Source of the DNA: Pirellulales bacterium
Lineage (GTDB): Bacteria; Planctomycetota; Planctomycetia; Pirellulales; UBA1268
Length of the DNA: 64,000 bases
Reading direction: 5' to 3'
Assembly (NCBI GenBank): GCA_017853835.1
Contig: JAFMIU010000005.1
Location: 33,072 to 97,071 of the forward strand
Shown here: positions 6,896 through 57,245 of the stretch, piece after piece
Position numbering within the stretch: the first letter of the stretch is position 1
Layout of the letters: every line of letters starts with the position of its first letter
The notes under the pieces: model-generated
The model's database searches: none
The model's input: only the letters and a program-made list of their open reading frames with translations
Told to the model about the DNA's origin: nothing
Program-made: the position numbers and the translations under genes

Positions 6896-7862
6896 CGGGA
6901 CTCGTCCCCCGACGACGGTGCGTCCGATCCTGGAGCTCCGTGCGGGGCTGCGGCGTTCGATCCGAACCGTCTTTGACGCCCGCGGGTTCGTCGAAGTCGA
7001 CACCCCCGTCTTGTCGCGGGAGGTGTTGCCGGAAGCGCACATCGACCCGATCGCCGTGACCATGCCTGGTGCGGCGGGCGTCGCCTTCCTGCAGGCGAGC
7101 CCCGAGGCCCTGATGAAACGTCTCCTCGCGGGCAGCTCGGGGCCGATCTACCAGTTTGCCCAGTCGTTTCGGGCCGGCGAACGGGGGCGTCAGCACGACG
7201 TCGAGTTTTGCCTTCTCGAGTGGTACGAGCCGGGAACCACGCTCGCCGACGCCGTGATCCTGCTTGACGACCTCTGCGCCGCAGCGCTAGGAACCCGGGG
7301 CATGGATCAGGTCTCGTGCCGCGAGGCCTTTGCTCAAACAGCAGGCGTCGATCTCGAGCACGCCGATGCCGCGTCGCTCGAGGCAGTCGCGGAGCGGCTG
7401 GTCGGGCCACGTCCCGTGCCATCCCCTGGAGCAACCGCCGCCGACCGGTGGGATCGTGCGTTTGAGATGCTCCTTGCCGGGGTGGTGCAGCCCACGCTTG
7501 GCCACGGGAGGCCGACGATGCTCGTGCAGTGGCCGGCCTCGCAGGCGGCCTTCGCCCGTCTTGACCCAGAGACGCCGGCATGGGCCAGACGGTTCGAGCT
7601 GTTCGTGTCGGGCGTGGAGCTCGCCAACGGGTGGGAGGAGGAGACGAGCCGGGAGGTGCTCCTCCATCGCATCACCGTCGCCAATCGGATCCGTGCCGCC
7701 GACGGCCGGCCGACGCTTCCCCTTCCTGATCGGCTGATCGCCGCCCATGGCGACACCATGCCGGCCGGCGTGGGCGCGGCGCTCGGATTCGACCGGCTCG
7801 TCATGCTCGCCGCAGGGGCTGACACGATCGCCGCGGCCCGCTGTTTTCACGGCGAGTCGTGA
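6885..7862 (+). CDS. epmA: EF-P lysine aminoacylase (GenX/PoxA)
   Basis: Class II aaRS catalytic core without anticodon domain: GFVEVDTP, LQASPE..MKRLLA, FRAGERGRQH, RFELFVSGVELANG, GAALGFDRL. Confidence 0.9.
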   Translation: MPSDGTRPPTTVRPILELRAGLRRSIRTVFDARGFVEVDTPVLSREVLPEAHIDPIAVTMPGAAGVAFLQASPEALMKRLLAGSSGPIYQFAQSFRAGERGRQHDVEFCLLEWYEPGTTLADAVILLDDLCAAALGTRGMDQVSCREAFAQTAGVDLEHADAASLEAVAERLVGPRPVPSPGATAADRWDRAFEMLLAGVVQPTLGHGRPTMLVQWPASQAAFARLDPETPAWARRFELFVSGVELANGWEEETSREVLLHRITVANRIRAADGRPTLPLPDRLIAAHGDTMPAGVGAALGFDRLVMLAAGADTIAAARCFHGES

Positions 7863-19887: not shown

Positions 19888-20982
<1,095 letters not shown>

Positions 20983-42500: not shown

Positions 42501-45500
42501 CCGGCGGAGGAGGCGGTCGGCGGTCTCGTCGAGTTCGCGAAAGCCAGGGTCGATGCCAGCTTCCAGCGGCCGCTCGCGGAGCAGGCGGCCGGCGAAGGAA
42601 TGAATCGTTCCGATCACCATCGAATCGACCCGGTCACGAGCGGCGGTGAACCGGTCGCGTTCGATTGGATCGGTCGTTTCAACGGCGAGTCGCTGCAGTT
42701 TCTCACGGAATCGTCGACGGAGTTCACTCGCCGCCTTTTTCGTGAACGTCACCGCGACAATGCCTTCCGGAGCGGCAGTGCCCGTGCGAACGAGCGCCAG
42801 CATGCGATCGACCATGCAGGTGGTTTTGCCTGTGCCAGCCGCTGCTTCAACGAGGAACGTGGTGCCCAGGTCGGCGCGGATGCGCTGGCGAACATGCTCG
42901 TCCGGAGGGAGCGCAGGCACCGCCGGATGCGGCGTGAGATCGAAGGGGGCGTCGTGAGGAAGGCGTCGTTCCAGAAGCCGGCGGGGAGAGGGTTGGCGGC
43001 GAAGCGTGGCAAACAGGTTTTGAAGATCTGCCGAAGCCGCCAGCTTCCGGGCGGCCTCGCGGGCGACGGTGCGTGGGTCGCCGCAGATCGTGGCGAAATC
43101 ACAGAAGCCACAGTCGGCGGTCGAGTCGGTTGGCAGGAAGGCGCCGTGGCGGGTGATGTCGGCAAGCTGACGAACGAGCGTCGTGCACTGGTCGAGCTGG
43201 GCGGTCGTCCATTCCAGACGCCGCCCCTTGCCGGCGCGGGTCGGAAAGAAATACCCAAACCGCTCGACATCGCCACCCGCGAGCTCGCCGTCGGCCGATT
43301 GGAGGCGGGCCCGCAGCATGACGACGTAGAGGCCGTGCTGCAGCCGTCGGCCTCCCTGAAACGGATCGTCCTCGGCCATCGACGGAAAGCCGTAGCCGCT
43401 GCCGCTTTTGTAGTCCCAGAGGGTGTATGACGGGGAGCCTTCGGCATCCCGGACGTCGATGCGATCGATGCGGCCTCGAAGACGGATCGTTTTCCCGTCG
43501 GTGAGTTCGACAGACACCGGCTGTCGGCAGTCGAACGGCGTTCCTTCGGCCGAAGGCTCCAGTCCGATCGCCGCCTCGAGGGCCATGGGGCGTCGGCCCG
43601 TCTCACGGCACGACCGCTCCTCATCGTGCAGGAAGGTGTGCATCGTGAGCCGGAGTTCCTCGCGACGCGCATCAAAGGCGAGGGCCGTGAGCGGGGGATG
43701 CCGTTGGCTGCTCGCCTCGAGCTCCTCGTCGAGAATCTCGTAGAGCTCCTCGAGATGCTGCTCGACGTGTGGAAGCTCACCACGATCGATCAGCCCCCGC
43801 ATGAACCGCTCGAGCACCGTGTGCATGAGGCTGCCGGCATCGAGCGGCGTGAGCCATTCGCCGGTGTCGTCGTCCGCCGGGGAGAGCGGTTCGATCTCCA
43901 GGCCGTAGCGAAAAAAGAAGCGACGAGGGCATGCGCCGATCGTTTCGAGACTGTGGGGCGAAGCCGCACGGCCGTCGGCGACACGCGGGTCGAGATCCTC
44001 GCCGGCCGCGGGCACATGGCCATCGTGAGGCGTGAAGGCATCCGATGCGCGGGCAGCCACGGCAACCTGACCATGCGTCAGATGGTCGCGATGGGCGCCG
44101 AGGGCCGCGCGGACGTCGGAGGCCGTGGCGAGCGGACCGAGCGTGGCCAGCCACCATTGGGATTCATCGAGCGCCAAGGAAGCATCGGTCGGGACGAGCG
44201 TTTCGGGGGGAGGGAGGGCCGCGAGGAGATCGTCGGTGGTTGCGAACGGCCTGCCCGTGGCGCGGGCATGGAGCGCCACGAGGGCCGGCGACGGAAACAC
44301 CTCGGAATCGTCGCCGGTGTCGCGGCAGGTGAAGCCGACCCACACCTCGCCTCGAACGCGGGCGAGGAGTCGGTGCCACAGGTCGAGCGCACGGGCCGCG
44401 GCATCACGAGCCACGGAAAGGGGGGCATCGGGGGTCGTGGCATTGATCATGCCGCGATCTCCGTCGGTGAGCACCGGATCCGTGACGCCCCCTCCGGGAA
44501 ACCGATTCTCGTCGAGGCCAAGCACGAAGGTGTATGGACGTCCGGAGTGGCCTCCTGCCGGAAGACCGCAGACATGCAGGCACCCTGGGCGTGGGCCGGC
44601 ACCGAGGACGACGAGTTCGGCGGGAAGCTGCTCCAACCAGTCGAGCATGTCGTCGGCCGTGGCGGTGGTCGACGTTCCGCCCCAGTGCAGCATGGCATCG
44701 AGTTCGTCGAGGAGTTTGCGTCGGGCGTTGCCATCAAACTCGCTGTCGCGAGCCGCCAGGAGGTCGATGAATCGCCTGGCGCCCGTGAGCACATCCTCGG
44801 CCGTTGGGTGCGGTCCTCCCTCGCACTCACTGAGCGTCGTGGCGAGGGTGGCGAGGCAGGAGAGCCGCTGGGAGATTCGAGCCTTGCGATCAGCGAGCTG
44901 CTCATCCGTAAGGAGGTCTGCCGGCATGGCGCCATCGTCGTCATCACGGCGACGGGCGAACGCCTCCGGAGGCAGGCCCGCGGTTCGCGCTGCGGCGGCG
45001 CCGAGCATCGCGGTGGTGCGTTCGAGGCCGCGGCCGATTATCACCCCGCGAAGCTCGCGGATGAGCGACGACGCCTGGGGAGGATCGCTCACGAGTTCGC
45101 TGAGGTCGAGCACGCCGTCTCGAAGCATGCGTTCGAGGCCCAGCTGGGGATGGCCTTCGCGACGCCATGCCAGCCAGTCGGCGAGGGCTCGACCAGGCTT
45201 GGAATCGGCCAGGGGCAAACCTTCGGCAAACGTCACCGGAAGGTGTCCGGGGCCGTCGACCGACGACGGGGGCGACGGAAGGGCTGCGACGATCTCGCGG
45301 ATGAGTGATGGATAGGTCGAGTCGTCGGTGTGAACGACCTCGATCTCATCGAGCCGAAGGCCACGCGCGAGGCAGGTACGAAGCACATGCCGCACTTCAT
45401 TCGCTTCGCCCGAGGCGCGAAAGATGGTGCACGGGGAGGGAGGGGCCTCATCGTGGGCTGGCGGATCGGTGGGCAGGCGACGGACGAGCACTCCCGGTGC

Positions 45501-46274
45501 CGACGAGAGCGCATCGAGAAGGCGTCGCTGGAGCTTGGGCAGGTCGAGGTCGTCGGGCACGAGAAGCCGCCGGATATCGGGCGGCACGGTTCCTTCCATG
45601 ACCCGCTTGATCGCCAGCTTCAGCTGGCTGGCCTGATCGACCAGCCGCATCGACTGCAGCGTCGCGTCGTAGCGGTCGAGGAGAAGTCCGAGGTCGTGGG
45701 CCTTGTCGGATCGACGAAGGCCCCGGGTGACATCCTCGGCCGTGATGTCGGCGAGGCGGAGCGATTCGAGGCTCGCGAGGATGCGATCTGCCAGACGATG
45801 GAGTGGTACCGAGGTGTCGATGAACGACCGGAGTTCGTTCTGGCTCTCCGCGAGCGCCCGTTCCACTGCGACCAGTTTGGCTCGAGGAGGAGCGAGCCGG
45901 GTGTTGTGACGCGCGAGGTCATCGGCGACGAGGTCGAACGCGAGAGCCGAGAGAGTCGTGACCCGCACGTTGACAGGACGGTGGCCGAGCCGCGCGAGCG
46001 TTTCAAGCCACGCGTTGCCCACACGGCGCGAGGGTGCCACGAGCCAGATGCCTGGGGAAGCCTGGCCGGCGACGGGGGCACCAGGCTCGCGGTGCAGCTC
46101 GTCGAGCGCCGCCGCGATGGAGGCGATGAGCGTGTTGGGCGTCGGGGGCGTGCGGCCCGGTATCCCCTGGGCGCAGGGAGCCAGACGGGAGCGGTCGGGC
46201 ACACGAACCTCGATCGCGTGCCAGGCGATCGGCGCAGCAGAGGCCGCAGCGGTGGTCTTCCGTGACGGGGGCAT
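39531..46274 (-). CDS. Single-chain AddB-AddA (helicase-nuclease) fusion, 2247 aa
   Basis: AddB-like half with CPRRFF...RGRIDRID...DYKSG...CGFCDFATIC. AddA-like half with AAAGTGKTT, TFT, VDEFQDTD, VGDPKQSLYRFR, NFRS, HKAKGLE, YVAATR and nuclease RGVIDLV...DWKTD...QVELY. Confidence 0.9.
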   Translation of the reverse strand: MPPSRKTTAAASAAPIAWHAIEVRVPDRSRLAPCAQGIPGRTPPTPNTLIASIAAALDELHREPGAPVAGQASPGIWLVAPSRRVGNAWLETLARLGHRPVNVRVTTLSALAFDLVADDLARHNTRLAPPRAKLVAVERALAESQNELRSFIDTSVPLHRLADRILASLESLRLADITAEDVTRGLRRSDKAHDLGLLLDRYDATLQSMRLVDQASQLKLAIKRVMEGTVPPDIRRLLVPDDLDLPKLQRRLLDALSSAPGVLVRRLPTDPPAHDEAPPSPCTIFRASGEANEVRHVLRTCLARGLRLDEIEVVHTDDSTYPSLIREIVAALPSPPSSVDGPGHLPVTFAEGLPLADSKPGRALADWLAWRREGHPQLGLERMLRDGVLDLSELVSDPPQASSLIRELRGVIIGRGLERTTAMLGAAAARTAGLPPEAFARRRDDDDGAMPADLLTDEQLADRKARISQRLSCLATLATTLSECEGGPHPTAEDVLTGARRFIDLLAARDSEFDGNARRKLLDELDAMLHWGGTSTTATADDMLDWLEQLPAELVVLGAGPRPGCLHVCGLPAGGHSGRPYTFVLGLDENRFPGGGVTDPVLTDGDRGMINATTPDAPLSVARDAAARALDLWHRLLARVRGEVWVGFTCRDTGDDSEVFPSPALVALHARATGRPFATTDDLLAALPPPETLVPTDASLALDESQWWLATLGPLATASDVRAALGAHRDHLTHGQVAVAARASDAFTPHDGHVPAAGEDLDPRVADGRAASPHSLETIGACPRRFFFRYGLEIEPLSPADDDTGEWLTPLDAGSLMHTVLERFMRGLIDRGELPHVEQHLEELYEILDEELEASSQRHPPLTALAFDARREELRLTMHTFLHDEERSCRETGRRPMALEAAIGLEPSAEGTPFDCRQPVSVELTDGKTIRLRGRIDRIDVRDAEGSPSYTLWDYKSGSGYGFPSMAEDDPFQGGRRLQHGLYVVMLRARLQSADGELAGGDVERFGYFFPTRAGKGRRLEWTTAQLDQCTTLVRQLADITRHGAFLPTDSTADCGFCDFATICGDPRTVAREAARKLAASADLQNLFATLRRQPSPRRLLERRLPHDAPFDLTPHPAVPALPPDEHVRQRIRADLGTTFLVEAAAGTGKTTCMVDRMLALVRTGTAAPEGIVAVTFTKKAASELRRRFREKLQRLAVETTDPIERDRFTAARDRVDSMVIGTIHSFAGRLLRERPLEAGIDPGFRELDETADRLLRRQAWRAFVTMAPTDHPHLLADLQSVGLRLGDLSDLFIDRFATYGDVESWPVSATPAPDIAALLGPIEAFVTAIEAETFSPPADRGSDPLMNALEQFARLARRCDTSSIVAVMDLVKELDRSPKAVQSYWQGTEGTPAEPALSGKERARHWNDAWTRLRDSVALPALWQWRAHRYPAAIAALRAALATYDRLRASRGVLSFQDLLGTSAKLLATHPEVRRSFRARYTHILVDEFQDTDPIQAEMLLLLTATDPTQTNWRHCQPVPGSLFVVGDPKQSLYRFRRADIVTYNTVRNTIEQHGTVLALTTNFRSRHDLVTWTNDVFGDQFPPSTTAESPSFTPSTSGRREAPPSGQERQWLTGVRALRFVRNGSAGDHWAEAEGHAIASFIRHAIDTGMAVPRTPDEIAKGITTACRPGDFMLVARERKHLGLYAAALHAAGLPVDVTGTLGTDQAEPLRDLRTCLAAVADPDDPVAILALLRGAVFGFSDADLYEYHAAGGRFTGVIDVPASLPEPLRARLTGARNAFARWRTWLRNLPIAATVERIVDDAGLFLLASLANGEAGPRGRAVAGLILKFLEQLRSDRMDVVSVHDCLDLLDDMVGDEARAEFDPLTIDVPSNDRIRIMNLHKAKGLEAPVVFLVDYQKRRVSDDVESGPFLRINRLHDQTVGYLAVTTSAGWSSSIIAAADDWETHARAERAFEAAEQIRLDYVAATRPGTCLVVSLFERHHPATKSRPESFVGEGAWERFVGGLASVPDLPTAASGSPAASAPVAAPHPASPAGRLSSRVASIHEPTFARISPRDLLTEPAEAIRFTGDGLGEAWGRAIHRILELASRGAAFDVAAAAATALSGEEISEAHLDRAITTVRDVLASDLWARALASGARFVEVPFSLQVRGEDLPVSVRSVTAAEQPLPTVIRGVIDLVFADPVDGSWTVVDWKTDSVASGSEAMLDAHYRPQVELYAECWRLVAPQDPSPGPSSTPAPSPKSSP

Positions 46275-46300
46275 GAACGCCTATTGTGTTCAGGCGTTCA
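46274..46300. promoter_or_regulatory. Perfect 9-bp inverted repeat overlapping the addBA start (candidate operator)
   Basis: TGAACGCCT-attgtgttc-AGGCGTTCA; first base is part of the start codon. Confidence 0.5.
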
Positions 46301-46354
46301 GTTTCGAAAAGGGGGGCGGCTGGCGGGCGGGAAAACCGGCCGTTGCCGACAGGG

Positions 46355-48055
46355 TCAGGTCGTGTGGTCGTCCGACAGGATCGGACGCATCAGAAGGCCG
46401 GTCGACGAAGTTTTCGCAGACGGCATGTCTCGCACGTCGTGCGCGGGAGGGGCCGGTTCCACCACGGGGCCGGCGGCGGGAGCCAGGGTCGGGGTGTCTT
46501 CCTTCGGCACGATGGCGGAGGGCGTGTCGGCGGGTTCGGGGATCGCCTTCAGCGACGCTCCGGCAGGGCTCTCGATCACCGGCTTGTCCGCCTGCCGAGG
46601 CTCGGCGGTTGACGGTGCGACATGACCGAGGCTCGAGGCGGTCCAGCCTTCGGTGGCGACGGCGGCTGCGTCGGCGGGCTTGTCGCTATAGGTTTTGATC
46701 GGGCCTGACGAGGCGGGTGATTCCGGGCGGGCTGCCGATGCCGCCGGCGCGGGAACCTGTTCGATGGAGGGTGCCGTCGACAGGGTCGGGGCTGCCGATG
46801 TCGTGGCAGGAGCGGTCGACACAGGGTTGCCACAGGGGTCGAGGGCCACCTTGGTGACAACCGTGCGAGGCATTCGCACCGTGTAGGAATAGGGGGTCTT
46901 CTTTTCGACGACCCGTGGAACCTGCATGGTGCGTTCTTCGGTGACGTACTTCATCACCTGAACCTGCACCGGCTCAACCTTCTCCTCGGTGACCATTTTG
47001 CAGACCTGCACGGCAACCTGCTGCACCTGTTCCTCCGGCACCATCTTGCAGACCTGCACCGGAACCTTGTTGTCAACACGTTCGACGACCTTGCGCACGG
47101 TCTGCACGGGCACCTGTCGAACGGCCGTTTCCGCGACCATCTTCATCGACTGCACCGGCACCTGCGTCACGACCTGCTCGTCGACGTAGCGGACAGTCTG
47201 CACGGGCACCTTCTGGGTGACCACGCGGTTGACATAGGTCGTTTCCGGCACCTGCACGGGCGTGGCGGTTGGCTGGTAGACGCGATTCACCTGGTTCACC
47301 ACGGTGCCCGGCGTCATCACCCACTGGTAGCCGCCTCGCTGCCAGACCGCGAGGCCGGTGGCCGGATCGATCACCCATCCTCCGGGAGCCCAGCCGAGAG
47401 CCGTCGCCCCGGGCGTCACGACCGGCGTGACGGTGTCGACGGCCTGGCTCCCGATCGAATATGCGGTGCGCATCTGGGTGACCGGTTCGCTGACGGTGTA
47501 AGCCTGCTCCCGCTCACTCGTTTCGTAGACGGGCTTCCGGACCGTTTGCACCTGCTGCTGCATCACGGTTTCGTACACGGGCTTCATCACTGTGTATTGC
47601 TCTTCACGAGTCGCCGTTTCGACCACGTCGCGGGTCACGTCGTAGCTGCGGTCTTCGATCACGGTCTCGTAGACCGGCTTCATCACGGTGGTCCGCTCTT
47701 CACGGGTCTGGGTTTCCCACACCGGCTTCTGCACGGTGTAGCGGCGCTCCTGCGTCTGCGTTTCCCAGACCGGCTTCTGCACGGTGTAGGTCTTCGTGTC
47801 GTAGACCGTTTCGTAGGAGACCCGTTCCGCCGTCACGACGCGTTCGTCGTAGACCGTTTGGTAGTCGAGGCGGTAGGTCTGGGTGGGCATCGCCGGGGCG
47901 GCCGGCGCGACGACGGCCCCACCACCACAGCCACATTCGGCGGAGGCGGTCTGGATCGCCGGCGACTGCGGTGCCATCACCAGCACGGCCGCGAAGAACG
48001 CATGGAGACGTTGAACAAAAGTCGAACGGGGGTCACGGCCGCCAGACGTTGTCAT
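46355..48055 (-). CDS. YTV-repeat secreted/envelope protein
   Basis: CAGGAG RBS, signal peptide, CGC, repeated YTVxKPV(W/Y)ET units, V/Q-rich repeats, Pro/Ala-rich tail. Confidence 0.85.
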   Translation of the reverse strand: MTTSGGRDPRSTFVQRLHAFFAAVLVMAPQSPAIQTASAECGCGGGAVVAPAAPAMPTQTYRLDYQTVYDERVVTAERVSYETVYDTKTYTVQKPVWETQTQERRYTVQKPVWETQTREERTTVMKPVYETVIEDRSYDVTRDVVETATREEQYTVMKPVYETVMQQQVQTVRKPVYETSEREQAYTVSEPVTQMRTAYSIGSQAVDTVTPVVTPGATALGWAPGGWVIDPATGLAVWQRGGYQWVMTPGTVVNQVNRVYQPTATPVQVPETTYVNRVVTQKVPVQTVRYVDEQVVTQVPVQSMKMVAETAVRQVPVQTVRKVVERVDNKVPVQVCKMVPEEQVQQVAVQVCKMVTEEKVEPVQVQVMKYVTEERTMQVPRVVEKKTPYSYTVRMPRTVVTKVALDPCGNPVSTAPATTSAAPTLSTAPSIEQVPAPAASAARPESPASSGPIKTYSDKPADAAAVATEGWTASSLGHVAPSTAEPRQADKPVIESPAGASLKAIPEPADTPSAIVPKEDTPTLAPAAGPVVEPAPPAHDVRDMPSAKTSSTGLLMRPILSDDHTT

Positions 48056-48253
48056 GGGTTCACTCCTGAAGAAGACCCTTCGAGACTAATCAGGAGTACG
48101 CGGCTCACAAGCCGCTCGGCCCACGAAACATGAGGTTTTTTTCCGAAAAAAACGGGGAATGGCGGCATGGCCGGCGCAATCGTCCTATTTTCCGGCCGGG
48201 ACGGCCCTGACCGGGGGCCCTGGGGAAGCCGCGGAAAACGGGAGCTTTCCCGG

Positions 48254-48748
48254 TCAGACCAGCTTCTCGACAAGCCTTCGGCTGTGGAGATCGAGGCCGG
48301 CAATGCTCAGGATTCGATACCGCATCCCGAAGGTGTCCGTGATGAACACGCTGCCGTCCGGCTGCCGGGCGATGTCGTCGGTGTGGGCGACTCGAAATCG
48401 ATGCGGACCGCGGTCGGTGATCACGCTCCATTCCGTCGGTTCAGCGACCGAGACAGACTCGATGCGTTCGATGACGGGAAGAAACTCCCGAACCGAGAGC
48501 TCCCGTTCGAGGAGCGTGCGAAGCGACGAGGGCTGCGTGGCGAGCGATTGCACCCAGGCCAGTTCGCCCCCATCGGCGGCGATAATCGCCACAGGACCGG
48601 AGGGCGCGGTTACCGGGAACGCCCGCAACACGTCGACATCGATGTGTTCGCGACCATGGGCATCGACAAAGTCGAGACGGCCGTGTCCATCCCGAATCAA
48701 CCTCCAGCCCTCGGGCGAGTCGCCGCTCGTCGTCGTGTCATTTGGCAT
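48254..48748 (-). CDS. DUF1854-family protein (cyanophycin-locus associated)
   Basis: V..LRAFPVTAP...ELAWV...LERELSVREFLPVIERI...W.V.TDRG...ITD.FG.RY.I..L..LD..SRRL. Confidence 0.85.
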   Translation of the reverse strand: MPNDTTTSGDSPEGWRLIRDGHGRLDFVDAHGREHIDVDVLRAFPVTAPSGPVAIIAADGGELAWVQSLATQPSSLRTLLERELSVREFLPVIERIESVSVAEPTEWSVITDRGPHRFRVAHTDDIARQPDGSVFITDTFGMRYRILSIAGLDLHSRRLVEKLV

Positions 48749-48775
48749 GGGTGGTTGATTCCGGAAACGTGGTGA

Positions 48776-51082
48776 TCAGACGCCGCTGGCGGCTTCCTCG
48801 TCCGCCTTCATCTGTGCATGGTAGAGGCGTGCGTACATCCCGTCGGCGGCGAGGAGTTCGTCGTGCGTGCCGATTTCGACAATCCGTCCGGCGTCGAGGA
48901 CCACGAGGCGATTGGCTCGCCGAAGGGTCGAGAGGCGGTGCGCGATCGCGATCGTCGTGCGGCCGGCAACGAGCCGGTCGATGGCAGCCTGGATGACGGC
49001 TTCCGTCTCGGCGTCCACGCTCGACGTGGCCTCGTCGAGGATCAGGATTCTCGGATCGACGAGCAGGGCTCTGGCGATGGAGAGTCGTTGGCGTTCGCCA
49101 CCGGAGAGGCCACCGCCTCGTTCGCCGACTCGGGAGTCGTAGGCCAGCGGCTGGGAGAGGATGAAGTCGTGGGCTCCGGCCGCCCGAGCGGCCTGGACGA
49201 CCGACGCCTGCGGGGCATCGGGCCGTCCATAGGCGATGTTGTCGGCGATCGTGCCGAAGAACAGAAACGGCTCCTGCAGCACGCAGCCAAGATGCCGGCG
49301 ATAGTCGGCGATGTCGATGTCGCGGAGATCGACACCATCGACCCGGATGGAGCCGCTGGACGGGTCGTAGAACCGGCAGACGAGGTTTGCCAGCGTCGAC
49401 TTCCCCGACCCGCTCGTGCCCACCAGGCCGATCATCTCGCCCGGTTCGATCACGAGATCGATACCGTGAAGCACTTCCCGTGCACCGTATCGGAAATGGA
49501 CGCCGGAGATCTCGATTCGGCCCTCGACCCTACCGAGTTGAACGGGGCGAGGTGATTCAGCGACCGTCGGCTTGCAGTCGAGAATCTCGAAGATGCGCTG
49601 CGCGCTGGCGGCGGCCCGCTGCGTGGCAGGCACCATGCGGATCATCGACTCCACGCGGCCGTAGAACCGGGCGATGTACGCCAGAAAGGCTGTCAGTCCA
49701 CCAACCGTCACGCTCCCGGAAAAAACGAGCCACGCCCCGCACGCCCAGACGACGAGCAGCCCGACCTCACTGAACAGGCTCACGAGCGGCCCGGTAAACG
49801 ACCACACCACATTGACGCGATCGTTGGCGTCGAGGACGCGATCGTTGGCCGATGCGAATCGCTCGACTTCACGGCGTTCCTGCGCGAAGGCCTTCACCAC
49901 GCGAATGCCCGGAATGGTGTCGGCCAGCACGCTCGTCATGTCGCTCCAGGCCACCGCGGCACGGGCGAATCCGCGGCGAAGCCGCTCGCGAACGGCGTAG
50001 ATGAGCCAGACCACGAACGGAAATGGCACGAGCGTGAGGATCGCGAGAAGGGGGTTGAGCCAGACGAGCACTGTCGCCGTCAAGGCCAGGAGCATCACGT
50101 TCGACGAAAACTCGATGAGGTTCACCGACAGGAAGATGTTGATCTTGTCGGTATCGCTGCCGACGCGGGCCATCAGGTCGCCGGTGCGTTTCCCCTGGAA
50201 AAAGTCGAGCGAGAGGGTCTGCATGTGGGCGTAGGTTTTCGTCCGTAGCCCGGCGGCGATTCGTTCGCTCACCCAGGCCAGCGTCCAGGTTTGTGCCCAC
50301 GACAACAGCCAGGCGGCGACCGCCGCGGCCAGCAGGCCGCCGAGATACCACCACACCGTCGCAAACGGGATGTCGGTGCCGTTCTGTCTCGGGATCAAGA
50401 CCCGATCGACCAGTGGCATGGTGAGGTAGGGGGGAACCAGCGCCGCCGTCGTGCTCGCGAGTGACAGCATGCACCCGAAGATCGCCATGGCGGCATGCGG
50501 GCGAGCAAAGGTGATGAGCCGTGCCAGGGCCCGCCAGGATGCCGTTCCACCACCAGGGTCGTCGTCGAGCCCGCGGGCTGCCACCGCTGGTGGCGTTTCG
50601 GATTCAGTGGCCTCGGCGCTGCCGCGGGAGGCCATGTTCGTCGTCGTCGAGGTCGATTCCGAAAGGCCATCAGGTCCGGCGACCCTGGCGTCGAATGCGT
50701 CTTCAAGCGCATGGATGGCGGCGGCTCGCGCCGGGGTGAACAGCCATCGCGCCACGATGCGTTCACCATCAAAGAGTTCGACCCGTCCCACGGCCGAACG
50801 CAGCTGCACATCCAGGCGTGTCGTCGCGCCGATCGGCCATGAGTGCGGGCCGGACGTGGTCGACGAGGTGCCTGGGGAGGCCGCATGGGCCGGCTCGTCG
50901 GCGATCACGCGTTTGGTGGTGAGGACGATCCAGCCATCCCGAAACTGGAGACGGCCATCGAGATCACATCGAGCCACGGCCAAGACCGTCTCGCTCGGGC
51001 CCAAGGCGATGCCATGCGTCCAGGGCAGGCCCAGCGAGGTTGCGGGCGGGATGGGACTCGTGAGTGGCCGACGGGTGGGCAT
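48776..51082 (-). CDS. ABC exporter (TMD+NBD) with extra N-terminal domain, cyanophycin-locus type
   Basis: N-terminal DLDGRLQFRDGWIVLT domain, TMD, GTSGSGKST, LSGGERQR, ILDEATS, IAHRLST. Confidence 0.9.
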   Translation of the reverse strand: MPTRRPLTSPIPPATSLGLPWTHGIALGPSETVLAVARCDLDGRLQFRDGWIVLTTKRVIADEPAHAASPGTSSTTSGPHSWPIGATTRLDVQLRSAVGRVELFDGERIVARWLFTPARAAAIHALEDAFDARVAGPDGLSESTSTTTNMASRGSAEATESETPPAVAARGLDDDPGGGTASWRALARLITFARPHAAMAIFGCMLSLASTTAALVPPYLTMPLVDRVLIPRQNGTDIPFATVWWYLGGLLAAAVAAWLLSWAQTWTLAWVSERIAAGLRTKTYAHMQTLSLDFFQGKRTGDLMARVGSDTDKINIFLSVNLIEFSSNVMLLALTATVLVWLNPLLAILTLVPFPFVVWLIYAVRERLRRGFARAAVAWSDMTSVLADTIPGIRVVKAFAQERREVERFASANDRVLDANDRVNVVWSFTGPLVSLFSEVGLLVVWACGAWLVFSGSVTVGGLTAFLAYIARFYGRVESMIRMVPATQRAAASAQRIFEILDCKPTVAESPRPVQLGRVEGRIEISGVHFRYGAREVLHGIDLVIEPGEMIGLVGTSGSGKSTLANLVCRFYDPSSGSIRVDGVDLRDIDIADYRRHLGCVLQEPFLFFGTIADNIAYGRPDAPQASVVQAARAAGAHDFILSQPLAYDSRVGERGGGLSGGERQRLSIARALLVDPRILILDEATSSVDAETEAVIQAAIDRLVAGRTTIAIAHRLSTLRRANRLVVLDAGRIVEIGTHDELLAADGMYARLYHAQMKADEEAASGV

Positions 51083-51470
51083 GGTGGCGAATGGGCTCGT
51101 CGGCAGAGGGTTGGAAGGAAAAGCCGGGAAAAACGCTTATTTGGTGGATCGACGATGGCGTGAACCAGAGAGACAAAACCCGCCGACAGAAACTTGCGTG
51201 GCCTTCCTGACCTACCTAAATTGTTGGCTTGCTTCCGTGCAAAACCTTTTTTGAAAAACTCGGCCTGCCCGCGAAATCCCTGAGAGACCACACGCTCTCA
51301 ACGTGTCTGCGAGCCAGCCTCAAGACTGTAGTTTTTTCCCACCTGCCTGCCGTGATTGGCCATTTTTGCCAAGCCCCTCGGCACCTTCATTCGTGATTCA
51401 CGCCTCGGGAATGCGATCTGACTCGGTATTTCAGCATGCTCTGGCCCTTCGGGGCGAGCAATGCCTGGAT

Positions 51471-51486
51471 TGGCACGGCACGTGCT
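51471..51486 (+). promoter_or_regulatory. Sigma54 (-24/-12) promoter candidate for cphA
   Basis: TGGCACGGCACGTGCT has TGGCACG and GG-N10-GC, in an AT-richer intergenic region, pointing at cphA. Confidence 0.6.
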
Positions 51487-52062
51487 GTCTTTCTTTTCGG
51501 TTGGTCGACGTTTTTCATCCAGGGGTCGGAAGCGTAAACTGTGACGTACGATCTGCGAAGTTGGTTGCCCACGGTGACAACCTTTCTTTTCAGAGAGGTG
51601 CGATCGGTGCGGCAGTCGCCGAACGGTCGCACGGCCTTCAACATGGTGCCGCAAGGAACGGGTATCGCAAGCGATCGCACGACTATGTGGCGTGCGGCGT
51701 TACCATCCGGCCTCGCGGTGAGGGAACTACATCGTCCCATGGCCACTTCGGCCGCTTGGTTGGTCGTTGGTTCGTATCTTCCGTCGTCGAGCCCGTTCGC
51801 GAAGACAGCCTTCGTCGAGGGCGCCTCTCCCGCGGCCCCGAAGGGCGAGCCGCCGCCCTGATCTGCCGACTCGACGGGTTCGTGCGGATGTCCGCTCCTT
51901 CTGCGGACGGCATGGCCCGGGCGACGCGCCCGAGCCGTTGCGTTGTGAATCGTGCGATCCCCGTTCCAGCGACATCCGCCGGAGTGTCCGGTGGCTGGAC
52001 GGGATGCACACCATCAGGCCCGCGCACGCGTCTGCGCACGGCTTAGGGACATCAGCCTTTCC

Positions 52063-55000
52063 ATGGAGATTCTTTCGGTCAAGGTGCTTCGCGGGCCCAA
52101 CCAGTGGGCGTCGTTTCCCTGTCTCGAGGCGTGGGTCGACCTCGGGCGGCTCGAAGACTTTCCCTCGAACACGCTGCCCGGCTTCAACGACCGGGTGATG
52201 ACGTGGCTTCCGACGATGATCGAGCATCGCTGCTCGACCGGCGAGCGCGGCGGCTTCTTCGAGCGGCTTCGGTCGGGCACCTGGATGGGACACGTTCTGG
52301 AGCACGTCACGCTCGAACTCCAGACCCTTGCCGGCACGCCGGTTGGCTACGGCCGCGCCCGGGAAGCCAAGACACGCGGCGTCTACAAGGTGGTGATCGA
52401 ATACAAGGAGGAGAAGTTCGCGATCGAGTGCCTGCATGCGGCCCATCGGCTGGTGATGGCGGCGATCAACGACACGCCCTTCAACGTCCCCGCCGAAGTG
52501 AAGCGTTTGCGGCAGGTGCTGCTGGACGTGCAGCTCGGCCCCAGCACGCGATCGATCGTGGAGGCGGCGACGGCGCGGGGCATACCCTCGCAGCGGCTGA
52601 CCTCGGGATCGCTCGTGCGGCTTGGCCAGGGTGCCAAGCAGCGACGAATCCTGGCCGCGGAAACCGATCGTACCGGAGCCGTCGCCGAGACCATCGCGCA
52701 GGACAAGGAGCTCACACGGACGCTTTTGGCGGAGTCGGGTGTGCCTGTTCCCGAGGGCCGGCCCGTGACCGATGCCGCCGATGCCTGGGCGGTGGCGGAG
52801 GAGATCGCCGGTCCTGTGGTGGTCAAGCCGCGATACGGCAATCAGGGACGCGGCGTTTCCGTGAATCTGGTGACGCGAGAGGAAGTGGAGCGGGCGTGGA
52901 TTCTTGCCAACGAGCAGGACTCATCCGTTGTCGTCGAGCGATTTGTCACGGGTGGCGACTATCGCCTCCTCGTCGTCGGTGGCCGGATGGTGGCTGCCGC
53001 CCGCCGTCATCCACCCACGGTGGTCGGCGATGGACACGCGACGATCCGCCAGCTCGTCGATCGGATCAATGAGGATCCGCGGCGGTGCGGTGATCATGCC
53101 ACGTCGTTGAGCCCCATGGTCATCGACGAGGTGGCCGTGGCGGTCCTCCGCGAGCAGGGGCTGACCGAGCAGAGTGTGCCGGAAGCCGGTCGGACGTGCA
53201 TGCTGCGGCGGAATGCCAACCTCAGCACCGGCGGGTCGGCCGAGGACGTCACCGACATCGTCCATCCCGACGTGGCCGCGCGGGCGATCGACGCGGCAAA
53301 AATCGTCGGGCTCGACGTGGCCGGCATCGACATGGTGATGGAAGACATCACGAAGTCGCTCGAAGTGCAACGCGGGGTCGTGATCGAGGTGAACGCCGCT
53401 CCCGGCCTGCGAATGCACCTGGAGCCGACCGAGGGAACGCCGCGCAACGTCGGCGCCGCGATCGTCGATTCACTCTTTGGCCCTGGTGAAGATGGCCGAA
53501 TCCCCACGGCAGCAGTGTCGGGCACCAATGGCAAAACCACGGTGGTGCGGCTTTTGTCGCATCTTGCCCATTCGGGTGGTGCGACCGTCGGCATGACCTG
53601 CACCGAAGGGGTGTGGATCGGGGGTCGGCTCATCGACTCCGGTGACTGCAGCGGCCCGAAGAGCGCCCGTCGGGTGCTTGCCAATCCGGCGGTGACGACC
53701 GCGGTGTTCGAGGCGGCCCGGGGAGGCATTCTGCGGGAAGGGTGCGGGTTCGACTGTTGCGATGTGGCCGTGGTGACCAACATTGCCTCGGGCGATCATC
53801 TCGGCATCGCGGAAATCGACACCCCGGAGCAGATCGCCTGGGTGAAGGGGGCGATCGTGGCAGCCGTCCGGCCCAGCGGATCTGCGGTGCTCAATGCATC
53901 CGATCCGCTCGTTGTCGGCATGAAGAAATGGTGCAAGGGGCAGGTGGTGTACTTCGCCCTCGATCCGGCAAACCCGGTGCTCGTTGAGCACCTCGCCCAG
54001 GGCGGACTCGCCGCCACGGTGCGCGACGGATGGATCGTGCTGTGCGACGGGCCTCGCGAGACGCGACTCGCCCACCTCGATCGGGTGCCGCTGGTCCATC
54101 GCGGCCTGGTCGACTTCCAGGTGGAAAACGTGCTCGCAGGGGCGGCGGCCGCCTGGCGACTTGGCGTGCCGCTGGAGCTCGTGCGGCTCGGGCTCGAGAG
54201 TTTTTCGAGCGGCACGGGCGGTTCGCCAGGCCGCTTCAATCTGCTCGATCTCGACGGAGCATCGATCGTGGTCGACTACGGCCACAACGTGCCGTCGCTG
54301 GAACGGATCTGCGGATCGCTCGCAAAGTTTCCGCACCCGCGTCGCACGGCCGTCTACTCGGCGGCCGGTGATCGGCGCGACGAAGACCTGATCGCCCAGG
54401 GTCGCCTGCTTGCCGCTGCCTTCGACCGTGTGGTGCTCTACGAAGACGCCTACATTCGCGGCCGGCAGCCGGGCGACATCACCAGGCTCATCACCCAGGG
54501 GATTCGCGAGGGGATGTCGGTCGACAAGCCCGTGATCATCGAGGCGGGCGGCGACTGGGCGGCGTCGGCGGCTGCGGTGCTCGACGGCGTTGGCAAGGGT
54601 GACCTTGTGCTTCTTCAGGCCGACTCGATCGAGCAGACCATGCCGTGGCTCGCGGAACGGTATGGCAGTCGCCTCAAGGACGCGGTGTATGAACAGTTTG
54701 CCGACGTGATCGCGGCCCGTGCGTCCGACGCGATGCCGACGTCGGATGAGCCTGTGGAGGTGAGGGCCGGTCGTCGCGGGCCGGAGGTGGTGGCCACCCG
54801 TGCCATCGCCGCCGGAGAGACGGTCTTGAAGACCTGGGGACAGAAGACGACCCAGCGATCGCGGCACACCATCCAGGTCGACCGCCAGACGCACCTCGTG
54901 CCCGATGGCATGGCCGTGCTCCTGAGCCATTCCTGCAGTCCGACGTGCGGCGTCGTGATCCGATCAGGCGTGACCCAGATCGAAGTCAGGGCCCTCCGTC

Positions 55001-55218
55001 CGATCGCCGCCGGTGAGGAGATCACCGTCGATTACGAGACCTTCGAGGAGGACGTGGCACACTTTGGAGGCCCATGTCGCTGCGGCGCGGCCTCATGCCG
55101 CGGCCGGATCGTCGGCTACCGGCATCTTCCCAATGACGTGAAGGCGAGGTATGGCGAATACATCGCCGAATACCTGCGGATTCTCGACTCGGAGATCAGC
55201 CTCCCTGCGGGCGTGTGA
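52063..55218 (+). CDS. cphA: Cyanophycin synthetase fused to C-terminal SET/post-SET domain
   Basis: LRGPNQW, HRC-x19-HVLEH, LGPST, ATP-grasp (VVVKP..GNQGRGV, NANLSTGG, EVNAAPGLRMH), Mur-like GTNGKTT, DYGHN. SET region from ~54748: IAAGE, SHSCSP, EEITVDY, CRCGAASCRG. Confidence 0.95.
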   Translation: MEILSVKVLRGPNQWASFPCLEAWVDLGRLEDFPSNTLPGFNDRVMTWLPTMIEHRCSTGERGGFFERLRSGTWMGHVLEHVTLELQTLAGTPVGYGRAREAKTRGVYKVVIEYKEEKFAIECLHAAHRLVMAAINDTPFNVPAEVKRLRQVLLDVQLGPSTRSIVEAATARGIPSQRLTSGSLVRLGQGAKQRRILAAETDRTGAVAETIAQDKELTRTLLAESGVPVPEGRPVTDAADAWAVAEEIAGPVVVKPRYGNQGRGVSVNLVTREEVERAWILANEQDSSVVVERFVTGGDYRLLVVGGRMVAAARRHPPTVVGDGHATIRQLVDRINEDPRRCGDHATSLSPMVIDEVAVAVLREQGLTEQSVPEAGRTCMLRRNANLSTGGSAEDVTDIVHPDVAARAIDAAKIVGLDVAGIDMVMEDITKSLEVQRGVVIEVNAAPGLRMHLEPTEGTPRNVGAAIVDSLFGPGEDGRIPTAAVSGTNGKTTVVRLLSHLAHSGGATVGMTCTEGVWIGGRLIDSGDCSGPKSARRVLANPAVTTAVFEAARGGILREGCGFDCCDVAVVTNIASGDHLGIAEIDTPEQIAWVKGAIVAAVRPSGSAVLNASDPLVVGMKKWCKGQVVYFALDPANPVLVEHLAQGGLAATVRDGWIVLCDGPRETRLAHLDRVPLVHRGLVDFQVENVLAGAAAAWRLGVPLELVRLGLESFSSGTGGSPGRFNLLDLDGASIVVDYGHNVPSLERICGSLAKFPHPRRTAVYSAAGDRRDEDLIAQGRLLAAAFDRVVLYEDAYIRGRQPGDITRLITQGIREGMSVDKPVIIEAGGDWAASAAAVLDGVGKGDLVLLQADSIEQTMPWLAERYGSRLKDAVYEQFADVIAARASDAMPTSDEPVEVRAGRRGPEVVATRAIAAGETVLKTWGQKTTQRSRHTIQVDRQTHLVPDGMAVLLSHSCSPTCGVVIRSGVTQIEVRALRPIAAGEEITVDYETFEEDVAHFGGPCRCGAASCRGRIVGYRHLPNDVKARYGEYIAEYLRILDSEISLPAGV

Positions 55219-55224
55219 CGCCCT

Positions 55225-56292
55225 CTATTTGAGGCCGGCGCGGCGGTCGAGCGCTCCGCGAACCCCGAGCTGCTCGGGATGCCTCGCGATCTTGTCGGTA
55301 AACACCCGCACGTCATCGACGATCGGGCGGAGTTCCTTCGTGAGTTTGTTGACGTTGGCCGCGGCCTGGGCGAGGTCGTTGTACACCTGGGGGTCACGGA
55401 CCAGCTTGCCGAGCGTGCCCTGGGATTCGTTCAGGGCCTTCGTGAAGGCGGCCGCCTGCTGAAGCGTCTCGTCGAGCCGGCCGATCGTGCGATCGATCGA
55501 TGCCACCATCCCCTCGCCACGCTCCCCGAGCGGGCGGGTGAGGCCCTCGAGGTTGCGGAGGTTGCGGTCGGCGGTGTCGACGGTTTCACCGATGCCTTGC
55601 ACCGTCGTGCGGAGGTCGGCGATGACGTCGGGCAGTGAGTTGAGCGTTGATTTCAGGCTCTCGCGCGCCCGTGGATCACCCATCACATCGTTGATGTTGG
55701 CCATGGCCAGGCTGAACGCGTCGAGGGCGGCTTCCGTCTTGTTGACCATCTTCCCAAACCGATCGTCGTCGCCGAGGAGCATCCGGTCGAGGTTGTCGGA
55801 AAGTTTCTTGACCGACTCACTGGCTTCCGCGAGCGACTGCATCGCGCCGCCGAGTTTTGGCTCGAGGGTCGCGAACACCTCGAAGGGATCTCGTGAGACG
55901 GCCCCTACGAGCACCTCGTCCTTGGCCACGCGTTGTCGCGGAGGCCGAATCGTGCCCGGCACGAGCTGGATCTCGGCATCACCCAGGAGCGTGGTGGCGA
56001 TCCTCGGCTGCTCATCGTGGTAGATCGGCACGTAGGAGTCGATTTCGGCCTCGACGCTCACGCCCCCCTTCTCGTCGAGTTCGACGCTGGAGACACGGCC
56101 CACGAGGATGCCGTTCTTGCGAACCGGGGTTCCGTCGGCGACACCCCTGGCATCGGAAAAGCTCATCTTCAAGGGATAGGTCGCCTGCACCAACGACGGC
56201 AGGTCCCCAAACAGCACGATCAGGATGCCGGTGATGATGGCTGTCGCCAGCACCACGACCCCAACGCGAAACTGCATCACCCGATCGTTCAT
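55225..56292 (-). CDS. mlaD: MCE/MlaD-family substrate-binding protein
   Basis: N-terminal TM, F.DARGV..GTPVRKNGI.VGRV, LLGD, helical tail with GTLGKL. Confidence 0.88.
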   Translation of the reverse strand: MNDRVMQFRVGVVVLATAIITGILIVLFGDLPSLVQATYPLKMSFSDARGVADGTPVRKNGILVGRVSSVELDEKGGVSVEAEIDSYVPIYHDEQPRIATTLLGDAEIQLVPGTIRPPRQRVAKDEVLVGAVSRDPFEVFATLEPKLGGAMQSLAEASESVKKLSDNLDRMLLGDDDRFGKMVNKTEAALDAFSLAMANINDVMGDPRARESLKSTLNSLPDVIADLRTTVQGIGETVDTADRNLRNLEGLTRPLGERGEGMVASIDRTIGRLDETLQQAAAFTKALNESQGTLGKLVRDPQVYNDLAQAAANVNKLTKELRPIVDDVRVFTDKIARHPEQLGVRGALDRRAGLK

Positions 56293-57245
56293 TCGTCCTC
56301 CTCCGTCGATGGCTCGGCCTCGGAGGCGCGGCTTGCCTCATCACGCTGGCCGGCTTCACGGGCCTGTTCTTCACGGAGTTCCATCAGCCGGGCTCCGGCC
56401 CGGCCTTCGACAAACTGACGAATCCTCGGATCGTTCGAGCGGTCGAGTTCATCGGGCGTGCCGTCGAACACCACCTGGGGCTCACCGGACTGCAGGCGAA
56501 ACAGCGGGTAGAGCATGATCACCCGATCGGCCACCTTCCGCGCGGTGTTCATGTCGTGGGTCACCACGACACTCGTGGTATGGGGCCTCCGGCTTACCGT
56601 CAGAATGAGCTCGTTGATCACATCGCTCATGATGGGATCGAGGCCGGTGGTCGGTTCGTCATAGAGCACCAGGTGCGGATCGAGGGCGAGGGCCCGTGCG
56701 AGTCCTGCCCGCTTTCGCATGCCGCCCGAGATCTGCACCGGTTTTTTCTCGAGCACGCTCCGTGGCAGTCCCACCTCATCCACGAGGGATTCAACGATGC
56801 CGTTGATGTCGGGCTCCGCGAGCCGCGTGTGTTCCCGGAGCGGAAACGCGATGTTGTCACGGATCGAGAGGCTGTCGAAGAGGGCGGCACCCTGGAAGAC
56901 GAAGCCGTAGCGTGTGCGGGTGTGGGCCAGAGCCCGGTCGGAGAGGGTCGCGAGCGATTGCCCCTCGAACCGCACGAACCCCGAGGTCGGACGGATGAGC
57001 CCGATCATGGTCTTCAGCAGCACGGTCTTCCCGCATCCGCTCTCGCCGAGCACGACGAGGGTTTGCCCGGGATCGAGGTCGATGGAGATGTCTCGGAGCA
57101 CGTGCTGGCTGCCGAACTGCACGCCAAGACGGTCCACCTGGAGCAGCGGCCCCGCTGCGTCGTCGTGGTGTCGGGAGGATGCGGTGGCAACGGCGGGCAT
57201 GGTGCTAGAGAAGGCGGCGCGGCCCCTCCGGACGGAAGAAGTCAT
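56289..57245 (-). CDS. mlaF: MlaF-type ABC ATP-binding protein
   Basis: GESGCGKT, FQGAALFDSL, ISGGMRKRAGLARAL, YDEPTTGLDP; start may be 57200. Confidence 0.9.
   Translation of the reverse strand: MTSSVRRGRAAFSSTMPAVATASSRHHDDAAGPLLQVDRLGVQFGSQHVLRDISIDLDPGQTLVVLGESGCGKTVLLKTMIGLIRPTSGFVRFEGQSLATLSDRALAHTRTRYGFVFQGAALFDSLSIRDNIAFPLREHTRLAEPDINGIVESLVDEVGLPRSVLEKKPVQISGGMRKRAGLARALALDPHLVLYDEPTTGLDPIMSDVINELILTVSRRPHTTSVVVTHDMNTARKVADRVIMLYPLFRLQSGEPQVVFDGTPDELDRSNDPRIRQFVEGRAGARLMELREEQAREAGQRDEASRASEAEPSTEEDE

Follow-up and report, generated by a model that had tools for sequence, protein, structure and literature searches.

A cyanophycin synthetase with a C-terminal SET methyltransferase domain, encoded opposite an ABC exporter and a DUF1854 protein in a Pirellulales bacterium

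In a 64,000-nucleotide stretch of DNA from a Pirellulales bacterium (GenBank assembly GCA_017853835.1, contig JAFMIU010000005.1; here called the window), a three-gene module was analyzed in which a cyanophycin synthetase (CphA) gene with a C-terminal SET domain (cphA-SET, 52063 to 55218, plus strand; TIGR02068 and PF00856) is divergent from genes for an ATP-binding cassette (ABC) half-transporter of 768 amino acids (48776 to 51082, minus strand; ABC_membrane, ABC_tran, and NF052233) and a DUF1854 protein of 164 amino acids (48254 to 48748, minus strand). We put at roughly one in two the probability that these genes are a complete unit which, under nitrogen control, makes and exports a modified poly- or oligo-amino acid resembling cyanophycin. 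The CphA, ABC, and DUF1854 module and the idea of export are already known (NF052233 and NF052234; Price et al., bioRxiv 10.1101/072470). New here, as read from the DNA and its translations, are the BurB-like methyltransferase built into the synthetase, the encoding of that synthetase by a single gene, and the lack of any detected breakdown gene. Judged by titles and the beginnings of abstracts, no paper on a CphA-SET fusion was found in the literature.

Composition of the module

The DUF1854 gene lies 27 nt downstream of the ABC gene, both are divergent from cphA-SET, and the spacer between the ABC gene and cphA-SET is exactly 980 bp (51083 to 52062). A first-pass annotation had proposed these three genes and a shared control region of about 980 bp; family profiles matched the corresponding open reading frames (ORFs), and the spacer length holds when measured from ATG 52063. 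That ATG (MEILSVKVLRGPNQW) was taken as the start of cphA-SET since residue 38 of the mechanically called ORF is the first to match the synthetase profile and the N-termini of relatives agree with it. GTG 51952, where the mechanical ORF starts, was rejected because the family profiles and all relatives begin at ATG 52063, with MEI(L/x)S(V/L)KVLRGPNQW as the N-terminus common to all relatives.

CphA-SET passed both TIGR02068 (1050.1 bits; cut-off, 850) and NF010623 (1183.5 bits; cut-off, 877) and matched the solved enzymes over the full length of CphA (7WAC, E = 4.5e-211; 7LG5, E = 7.4e-208) at about 41 to 43% identity. Its catalytic residues were compared in a site table of 121 CphA-like ORFs. 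The N domain (52063 to 52530, plus strand), as aligned to SuCphA1, carries the cryptic endo-cyanophycinase motif Cx19HxxEH described in a part of PMC9262961; C57, H77, E80, and H81 correspond to C59, H79, E82, and H83 of SuCphA1 and are invariant in 32 CphA-SET proteins. The G domain (52531 to 53499, plus strand; RimK and ATP-grasp Pfam matches), for elongation of the aspartate backbone, has the P-loop GNQGRG and keeps R301, N386, and R450, the equivalents of Te R309, N394, and R458, which hold aspartate and the intermediate according to passages of PMC9427784. The M domain (53500 to 54648, plus strand; Mur_ligase_M and Mur_ligase_C matches) is Mur-ligase-like, serves in side-chain amino acid addition, and has the catalytic pair D578/H579 (SuCphA1 D585/H586), which is invariant in the CphA-SET family. 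Judged by these motifs, the window CphA unites in one chain all of the live parts that are split between CphA and CphA' in betaproteobacteria.

The SET domain with its post-SET zinc cluster (54748 to 55185, plus strand; residues 896 to 1041) matched PF00856 at 40 to 45.6 bits (cut-off, 22.4) and follows the M domain after a linker that is variable and some 35 residues long. Its motifs in the window copy are SHSCSPTC (family consensus, NHSCEPNC), EITVDY, and the post-SET CRCGAASCRG. H956, C958, the proline, Y991, and three post-SET cysteines are invariant in 32 aligned CphA-SET proteins, and from its motifs the domain looks active. A profile built from 13 CphA-linked SET domains was searched against solved structures, and the best relative was BurB (PDB 9L4T; E = 9.7e-19; 70.9 bits; profile positions 9 to 132 of 146), ranked ahead of MLL (MLL1, 59.3 bits), ASH1L, NSD, and SETD2. 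According to passages of PMC12542666, BurB S-methylates free methionine and grips its substrate by main-chain contacts. Since methionine is bound through main-chain atoms, BurB gives no reading of the substrate specificity of the window SET, which resembles it in sequence and was not classed as a BurB.

An exhaustive search with the SET profile gave 14022 matches at E <= 0.001 and 61 at E <= 1e-30. Domains were scanned in 20 proteins clearly longer than a lone SET, hand-picked (nonrandomly) from the best 150 of the 14022. Fusions were seen to an ornithine/diaminopimelate/arginine decarboxylase (two proteins), a lysine/ornithine N-monooxygenase (one), a D-Ala-D-Ala-ligase-like ATP-grasp domain (two), an M29 peptidase (one), and an SDR protein (one); two more were CphA'-SET proteins, six were multi-SET repeats, and five had no other recognized domain. 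Over 130 to 153 residues, identity of the window SET was 39% to the decarboxylase-linked, 37% to the monooxygenase-linked, and 35% to the ligase-linked SETs, and the tail GY(K/R)xLP...Y...IA.YL was shared with them. Because this SET subfamily is found together with enzymes acting on free basic amino acids, a small-molecule or side-chain methyl acceptor is favored over a protein.

We see little chance that SET is instead a protein methyltransferase, acting as a regulatory switch on a lysine of CphA, the exporter, DUF1854, or some other protein and leaving the polymer unmodified. It is true that nearly all characterized SET domains are protein-lysine methyltransferases, that the PDB matches behind BurB are MLL, ASH1L, NSD, and SETD2, and that the sources of the relatives annotate them as "protein-lysine N-methyltransferase." However, the closest solved relative uses a free amino acid, and sister SETs are fused to enzymes of free Lys-, Orn-, or Arg-type amino acids. 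Moreover, all 13 SET-bearing rows had the domain on a chain whose M-domain Asp-His pair is intact, even the 4 with a degenerate G P-loop, and this tracking of a live M domain fits a side-chain step rather than general regulation. The first-pass annotation had named the domain a tailoring methyltransferase. Its constant place behind an intact M domain and its intact catalytic motifs make that a reasonable name; the nearest solved relative, however, methylates a free amino acid, so that methylation of a precursor is just as possible. Two side observations concern the same SET subtype. Four proteins of 960 to 1479 residues (P0196, P0197, P0198, and P0199) have five to nine tandem copies of it and no other recognized domain, and the window's genome has a second, free-standing SET gene (G000:C94:2816-3193; a 213-residue frame, 37% identical to the fused SET).

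On the other side of the spacer, the ABC protein passed NF052233, "cyanophycin metabolism-associated ABC transporter," with 1037.2 bits (cut-off, 880); the next best was MsbA at 454 bits. It consists of an N-terminal PH-like head (residues ~25 to 135), an acidic low-complexity linker, a six-helix exporter domain (201 to 475), and a complete ATPase domain, the head matching bPH_3 with an E value of 0.11 at best. A CPxC..CPxC zinc ribbon follows the head in betaproteobacteria and at the metagenomic loci L113 and L118/L119, and throughout the window clade the linker is found instead. The DUF1854 protein, predicted to be the exporter's cytoplasmic partner, matched PF08909 (109.9 bits; cut-off, 26.8; 1.1e-31). 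No solved relative of it was found, and its look-alikes in the Atlas were other DUF1854 proteins only.

A physical link between the two proteins is suggested by ABC-DUF1854 fusions in the phylum, which occur as frames of 940 to 1005 residues and as a 963-residue Atlas cluster. When ABC residues 20 to 140 (19-row alignment) were modeled with DUF1854 (24 rows), the predicted complex scored 0.58 (runs of 0.58, 0.60, and 0.57), the best of three controls scoring 0.02; the partner pLDDT was >= 83, and >= 75% of the contacts were shared between runs. In the benchmark of this score, 116 of the 157 complexes with solved structures came up to the mark, as did 2 of the 215 mismatches; at values <= 0.60, just 18 of the 157 did so, along with both passing mismatches. 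By itself the score rates as weak support. With the fusions and published cofitness as a prior, the model lends mild support to docking of DUF1854 on the ABC head. The cofitness, reported in passages of Price et al. (bioRxiv 10.1101/072470), joins DUF1854, the ABC gene, and cphA/cphA' in two betaproteobacteria; the same passages propose DUF1854 as a subunit of a transporter exporting the amino acid polymer made by cphA/cphA'.

Lipids, small molecules, and peptides are the usual cargo of exporters of the MsbA/HlyB type. Together with the ability of the N-domain peptidase to cut chains and the small-molecule pathways in which the BurB-like SET subfamily works, this would fit the pumping out of a short product, soluble and methylated, in the form of an isopeptide oligomer or a dipeptide-like compound, for use as, e.g., an osmolyte, signal, or metal binder; a short oligomer was among the options named in the first-pass annotation. 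Such a product appears unlikely, given that CphA has kept every part of its processive machinery, that the sequence sets no limit on chain length, and that a light-scattering polymer is relayed for the Cupriavidus pair in passages of Price et al. (bioRxiv 10.1101/072470).

Conservation, distribution, and breakdown genes

That synthetase, exporter, and DUF1854 act as one unit for making and exporting a modified polymer is consistent with how the three genes travel. A metagenome scan with the SET alignment, using tblastn and ORF maps, covered at least 80 loci; the L-numbered SET loci are among the matches listed, and the neighborhood counts for CphA-SET rest on metagenome contigs. Among the matches listed, 21 loci were of the window type, 6 cut inside or just before cphA and 15 reaching upstream. 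The ABC gene (68 to 82% identity) and the DUF1854 gene (55 to 73%) were present and divergent from CphA-SET in all 15 of the upstream-reaching loci. This neighborhood check had been set beforehand as a refuting test, and it found the exporter and DUF1854 co-conserved with CphA-SET in these 15 loci and in other SET architectures as well. At two loci (L094 and L097), exactly DUF1854-ABC-cphA-SET is inverted as a block between the same flanks, YTV and MlaD, and the flanking MlaD/E/F genes stay in place; the three genes thus move as one block, and the flanks are not part of the unit. In the window, YTV-repeat and DUF1559-type genes are the neighbors of the module, and these, along with the names of the sources of homologues, put the organism in Planctomycetota.

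Other arrangements keep the association in altered form. Nine further loci encode a shorter SET-bearing paralogue (954 to 986 residues) with the N motif intact, the G P-loop decayed, and M intact. At L113, CphA'-SET is followed by a second CphA, opposite ABC-DUF1854, and at L118 and L119, CphA'-SET stands opposite ABC, DUF1854, and a 673-residue G-only ligase. One open frame of >= 1639 residues (L115:7589-12505) reads CphA'-SET-CphA; DUF1854 is adjacent to it, and no ABC match was found within 7.5 kb upstream. L117 shows ABC only, at the contig end, and L114, L116, L120, and L122 are too short to tell their partners. In loci from one metagenome (L122:2190-2253 and L109 to L112), SET is a separate 153-codon ORF, parted from M in L122 by an in-frame stop; either the form is truly split or the sequence is in error.

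When the C-terminal 172 residues were searched against a collection of 5.8 billion proteins, 74 proteins were found, 73 of which had SET on a full-length or partial CphA; where named, these 73 came from Planctomycetia, Pirellulales, or Planctomycetota. No planctomycete CphA-SET locus was among the matches listed from genome contigs. The 80 CphA loci among those matches comprised 17 with the exporter (16 with DUF1854, one contig ending earlier) and 63 with neither, and the 17 belonged to Burkholderiales-type betaproteobacteria or to one "Gammaproteobacteria bacterium" record; none carried SET. In 401 sampled genomes of the phylum, the fusion was shown by the window's genome (G000) only, with weak matches in three long frames (G145, G297, and G382). 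All exporter-linked CphA sequences fell into one 57-row group with support of 100 in a 121-row FastTree phylogeny. A 47-row IQ-TREE phylogeny (LG+G4, short search, SH-aLRT only; near-duplicates, fragments, and L115 left out) split 24 exporter-clade rows from 23 other CphA rows with an SH-aLRT of 100 and joined the 10 SET-bearing rows with an SH-aLRT of 86. One clade member alone, L025, lacks a nearby exporter although its flanks are complete; its genome encodes a DUF1854 protein (164 bits) at a distance of about 700 kb.

The first-pass annotation had suggested that the module may have been acquired horizontally. G+C over 48 to 56 kb was 0.63 to 0.67, against ~0.67 for the window, and metagenome relatives have the same flanking genes; with this ordinary G+C and kept synteny there was no sign of a recent event, and recent transfer was rejected. 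An old transfer between phyla, in either direction, is plausible in view of the patchy distribution in the phylum and of the nearest outside relatives, which are Burkholderiales.

Genes for breakdown of cyanophycin were sought at two levels. Within the window, Pfam scans of 37 ORFs found no cphB, isoaspartyl dipeptidase, or second cphA, as had been claimed from the sequence alone. The window's genome (3.9 Mb in 183 contigs) has one cphA copy only, and no TIGR02069 cyanophycinase, Peptidase_S51, Asparaginase_2, or AstE_AspA catalytic domain was matched in it, the last being the family to which we take CphZ to belong; the search for cphB was negative there too, and isoaspartyl dipeptidase TIGR01975 gave chance-level matches only (20 to 23 bits). 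The 401 genomes of the phylum comprised 57 with DUF1854, 98 with a cphB-like gene (E <= 1e-10), and 32 with a full-length CphA over the cut-off. By hand count, and as bare counts in which kin are not independent, a cphB-like gene was present in 4 of the 57 DUF1854-positive genomes versus 94 of the 344 others, and in 31 of the 32 genomes with full-length CphA, the sole exception being the window's genome. The absence of a cyanophycinase beside a full-length CphA in the window's genome is therefore unusual for the phylum. Three genomes of the same order (99% complete) have none of the three surveyed genes (DUF1854, cphB-like, and CphA). The ordinary planctomycete locus (G286, G094, G294, and about 25 more) is cphB-cphA, then an M-only gene of about 590 residues, without DUF1854.

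These counts bear on whether the polymer is an ordinary intracellular nitrogen store, marked by SET (for solubility, or as a shield from foreign cyanophycinases), with ABC/DUF1854 serving other cargo such as fragments or N-domain dipeptides destined for efflux. We consider this to be improbable. By score, the CphA is a full cyanophycin synthetase equivalog that keeps every aspartate-binding residue, the intact endo-cyanophycinase motif would permit some turnover without cphB, the sigma-54-type promoter described below fits control by nitrogen status, and the module and a cphB-like gene occur together in two genomes (G156 and G396). Yet no dipeptide-use enzyme was found in the genome, so that a store would not be usable by known routes; cphB is seldom present in the DUF1854-positive genomes; and the exporter stays with the synthetase through the inversion and three architectures.

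Elsewhere in the window, a single 2247-residue protein (39531 to 46274, minus strand) has two PD-(D/E)XK nuclease stretches and a UvrD helicase, like a fused AddAB. DNA near-identical to 50900 to 53400 was present in groundwater (X4), freshwater (X6), and landfill (X8) metagenome runs, within a listing of 20 runs from 13 studies, two of which are possibly the source of this DNA. A metatranscriptome run (X20) held a single 151-nt contig identical to 52257 to 52407 and a partial second one, with none over the leader; this does not prove transcription.

The control region upstream of cphA-SET

The spacer has been kept long in 14 orthologous loci (825 to 1247 bp), and its cphA-proximal 420 nt are 66 to 80% identical to the window. 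A sigma-54-type -24/-12 element (TGGCACGGCACGTGCT; 51471 to 51486, plus strand) follows the pattern GGCAC-N5-xTGC, which is present in 14 of 15 orthologous spacers at 262 to 274 nt (313 nt in two) upstream of a leader ORF and arises 0.6 times per 15 spacers in shuffles. On this pattern, the element is the probable promoter of cphA-SET. The window's genome has rpoN, and a sigma-70 promoter scan of the spacer gave 0 sites. A "terminator-like" match at 51471 to 51487 was rejected, since it coincides with the sigma-54 element.

Downstream of this element, a stem-loop of the leader RNA (~51648 to 51719, plus strand; RNAalifold with 12 sequences, 29 pairs, 7 compensatory) precedes a leader ORF of 40 codons (51739 to 51861, plus strand; MATSAAWLVV...SPAAPKGEPPP-stop), recognized by its conserved ends. 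In 15 of 15 loci the ORF spans from the conserved CCATGGCC to a conserved TGA, with lengths of 38, 40, 41, 42, 45, 46, 48, 110, and 112 codons, and the use of the same ATG and TGA despite differing lengths indicated that the frame has been kept across indels. The peptide begins MA(T/L)(S/T)AG and ends SPAAPDC(Q/W/R)PP(P)-stop, and variable sites in 13 aligned ends were distributed 4/3/8 by codon position. Between the leader ORF and the cphA start lies a folded leader RNA (51910 to 52041, plus strand) of 37 pairs, 15 of which are changed on both sides, compared to 7.8 +/- 1.7 in shuffled alignments (0 of 500 reaching 15) and 5 to 9 in slid controls. No relevant Rfam family was found at E <= 1 over 46000 to 56500, and of the 11 loci searched that are betaproteobacterial or of another architecture, none had a Pro-ending leader ORF in its spacer.

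TnaC and SpeFL are metabolite-sensing leader peptides that stall at termination. The arrangement here resembles those of the tna operon and speF in having a short upstream ORF, some 200 nt ahead of the gene, whose conserved C-terminal motif closes with proline-stop, and in the folded RNA between ORF and gene. It differs in that the promoter is of the sigma-54 type, and the likeness is one of analogy, with no sequence comparison behind it; no Rho or terminator element was identified in the window leader. Two further observations in the window concern the same subjects. A class II tRNA-synthetase-like protein of 325 residues (6885 to 7862, plus strand) matches EpmA, the lysyl-transferase of EF-P, in size; polyproline stalls are relieved by EF-P, and PPP is the last part of the cphA leader peptide. 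Genes for a sigma-54 activator that lacks a receiver domain (Sigma54_activat and HTH_8) and, two genes from it, for argininosuccinate lyase are located at 19888 to 20982 and 23333 to 24760 (both minus strand), the activator being about 30 kb from the sigma-54-type cphA promoter.

Proposed pathway and relation to known systems

If the three genes do form a nitrogen-regulated production-and-export unit, the following sequence of events may be proposed. One polypeptide would supply four active sites. The G domain would extend a poly-aspartate backbone, and onto each aspartate side chain the M domain would ligate a basic amino acid. The fused SET would methylate the side-chain residue with S-adenosylmethionine, just before or just after ligation, the target most likely being the terminal amine of a lysine- or ornithine-type residue. 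The zinc peptidase of the N domain would cut chains into primers or short pieces. The ABC half-transporter, with DUF1854 docked on its cytoplasmic PH-like head, would carry the product across the cytoplasmic membrane, and the product would then belong to the envelope or periplasm and not form a storage granule. Transcription would run from the sigma-54 promoter through the long leader, where the Pro-Pro-stop peptide and the folded RNA would gate expression. A more specific version is possible but tentative, namely, that freshwater planctomycetes make a new poly-aspartate polymer whose side-chain Lys- or Orn-type residues (or sulfonium residues, if the enzyme is BurB-like) are methylated by the built-in SET, that ABC/DUF1854 exports it to the envelope, and that sigma-54 and an amino-acid-sensing stalling peptide switch its production.

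Several observations weigh against the proposed unit. In CphA, the P-loop residue His267, critical in both studied enzymes (Te and SuCphA1), is Gln261; glutamine prevails at this position in the clade linked to the exporter (all 9 window-type proteins, 22 of the 26 long CphA proteins of betaproteobacteria, and both G-only ligases) and was found in just 8 of 64 other CphA proteins. The window SET has Ser and Thr in place of both Asn residues of the family consensus NHSCxPN. BurB acts on the sulfur of a free amino acid, so that a lysine-type amine on a polymer is one possible acceptor among several. The window DUF1854 scored 142.8 bits with NF052234, just below the cut-off of 150; this model looks tuned to proteobacteria, as none of the 57 DUF1854 matches of the phylum reaches its cut-off. 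No membrane-fusion, periplasmic, or outer-membrane partner was found among the annotated ORFs of the locus or window, the exporter being of the MsbA/HlyB type. The window leader peptide reads KGE (PKGEPPP) where the family has DC(Q/W/R). With a genome that is 93.6% complete, a missing breakdown gene is not proven absent, and two same-class genomes (G156 and G396) hold the DUF1854/CphA set along with a cphB-like gene, which means that the module does not exclude degradation. Finally, the CphA/CphA' pair of Cupriavidus did not make cyanophycin, as relayed in passages of Price et al. (bioRxiv 10.1101/072470).

Cyanophycin has so far been treated as an unmodified internal nitrogen store, and according to passages of Sharon et al. 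(PMC9974463), no process for its export was known as of 2023. The more specific version, if true, would be the first case in which cyanophycin is exported and the first in which it is tailored. The module, whose three genes fit on a single 7-kb piece, is a compact system in which to address two questions, whether ABC/DUF1854 exports the polymer and whether nature tailors cyanophycin. Methylated, soluble poly-amino acids would be of interest to makers of cyanophycin as a material, and the leader, with its sigma-54 promoter, stalling-type peptide, and folded RNA, would be a rare example of such control in Planctomycetota.

The closest known system is the betaproteobacterial cphA-cphA'-ABC-DUF1854 cluster, as in Acidovorax sp. 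3H11 and in Cupriavidus basilensis 4G11, to which the window exporter is 51 to 55% identical over about 730 residues, DUF1854 36 to 39%, and CphA 45 to 50%. The association of exporter and DUF1854 with tandem cphA genes in betaproteobacteria, which the first-pass annotation had named, proved to be correct in genome loci and in passages of Price et al. (bioRxiv 10.1101/072470). The two systems share the CphA clade (SH-aLRT of 100), the divergent gene order, and, usually, the lack of a cyanophycinase. They differ in the number of synthetase genes, two in betaproteobacteria and one in the window. The long betaproteobacterial CphA (L011 to L031, L078, and L082) has the Gln P-loop (22/26) and a live M pair (23/26), with the N motif mostly absent; the short CphA' has the N motif (15/16) and a His P-loop (14/16), with a live M pair in just 2 of 16. 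The window has, in addition, SET (0 of 17 listed betaproteobacterial loci) and a control region with sigma-54 promoter, leader peptide, and RNA before cphA, and it lacks the zinc ribbon of the exporter head.

Compared to cyanobacterial CphA1 (SuCphA1, 7LG5; TeCphA1, 7WAC), the window protein has the same N-G-M order over its full length and keeps Cx19HxxEH, the M Asp-His pair, and the aspartate-binding residues. It is unlike CphA1 in having Gln for His267, a C-terminal SET, an exporter rather than cphB as its neighbor, and a place in a separate clade. BurB of Burkholderia thailandensis (9L4T and 9L4V) and the window SET share the HSC motif, the catalytic Tyr, the CxCx4C cluster, and the C-terminal tail, at modest identity; BurB, according to passages of PMC12542666, is a free-standing protein of 172 residues that serves dimethylsulfoniopropionate (DMSP) and malleicyprol-type chemistry.

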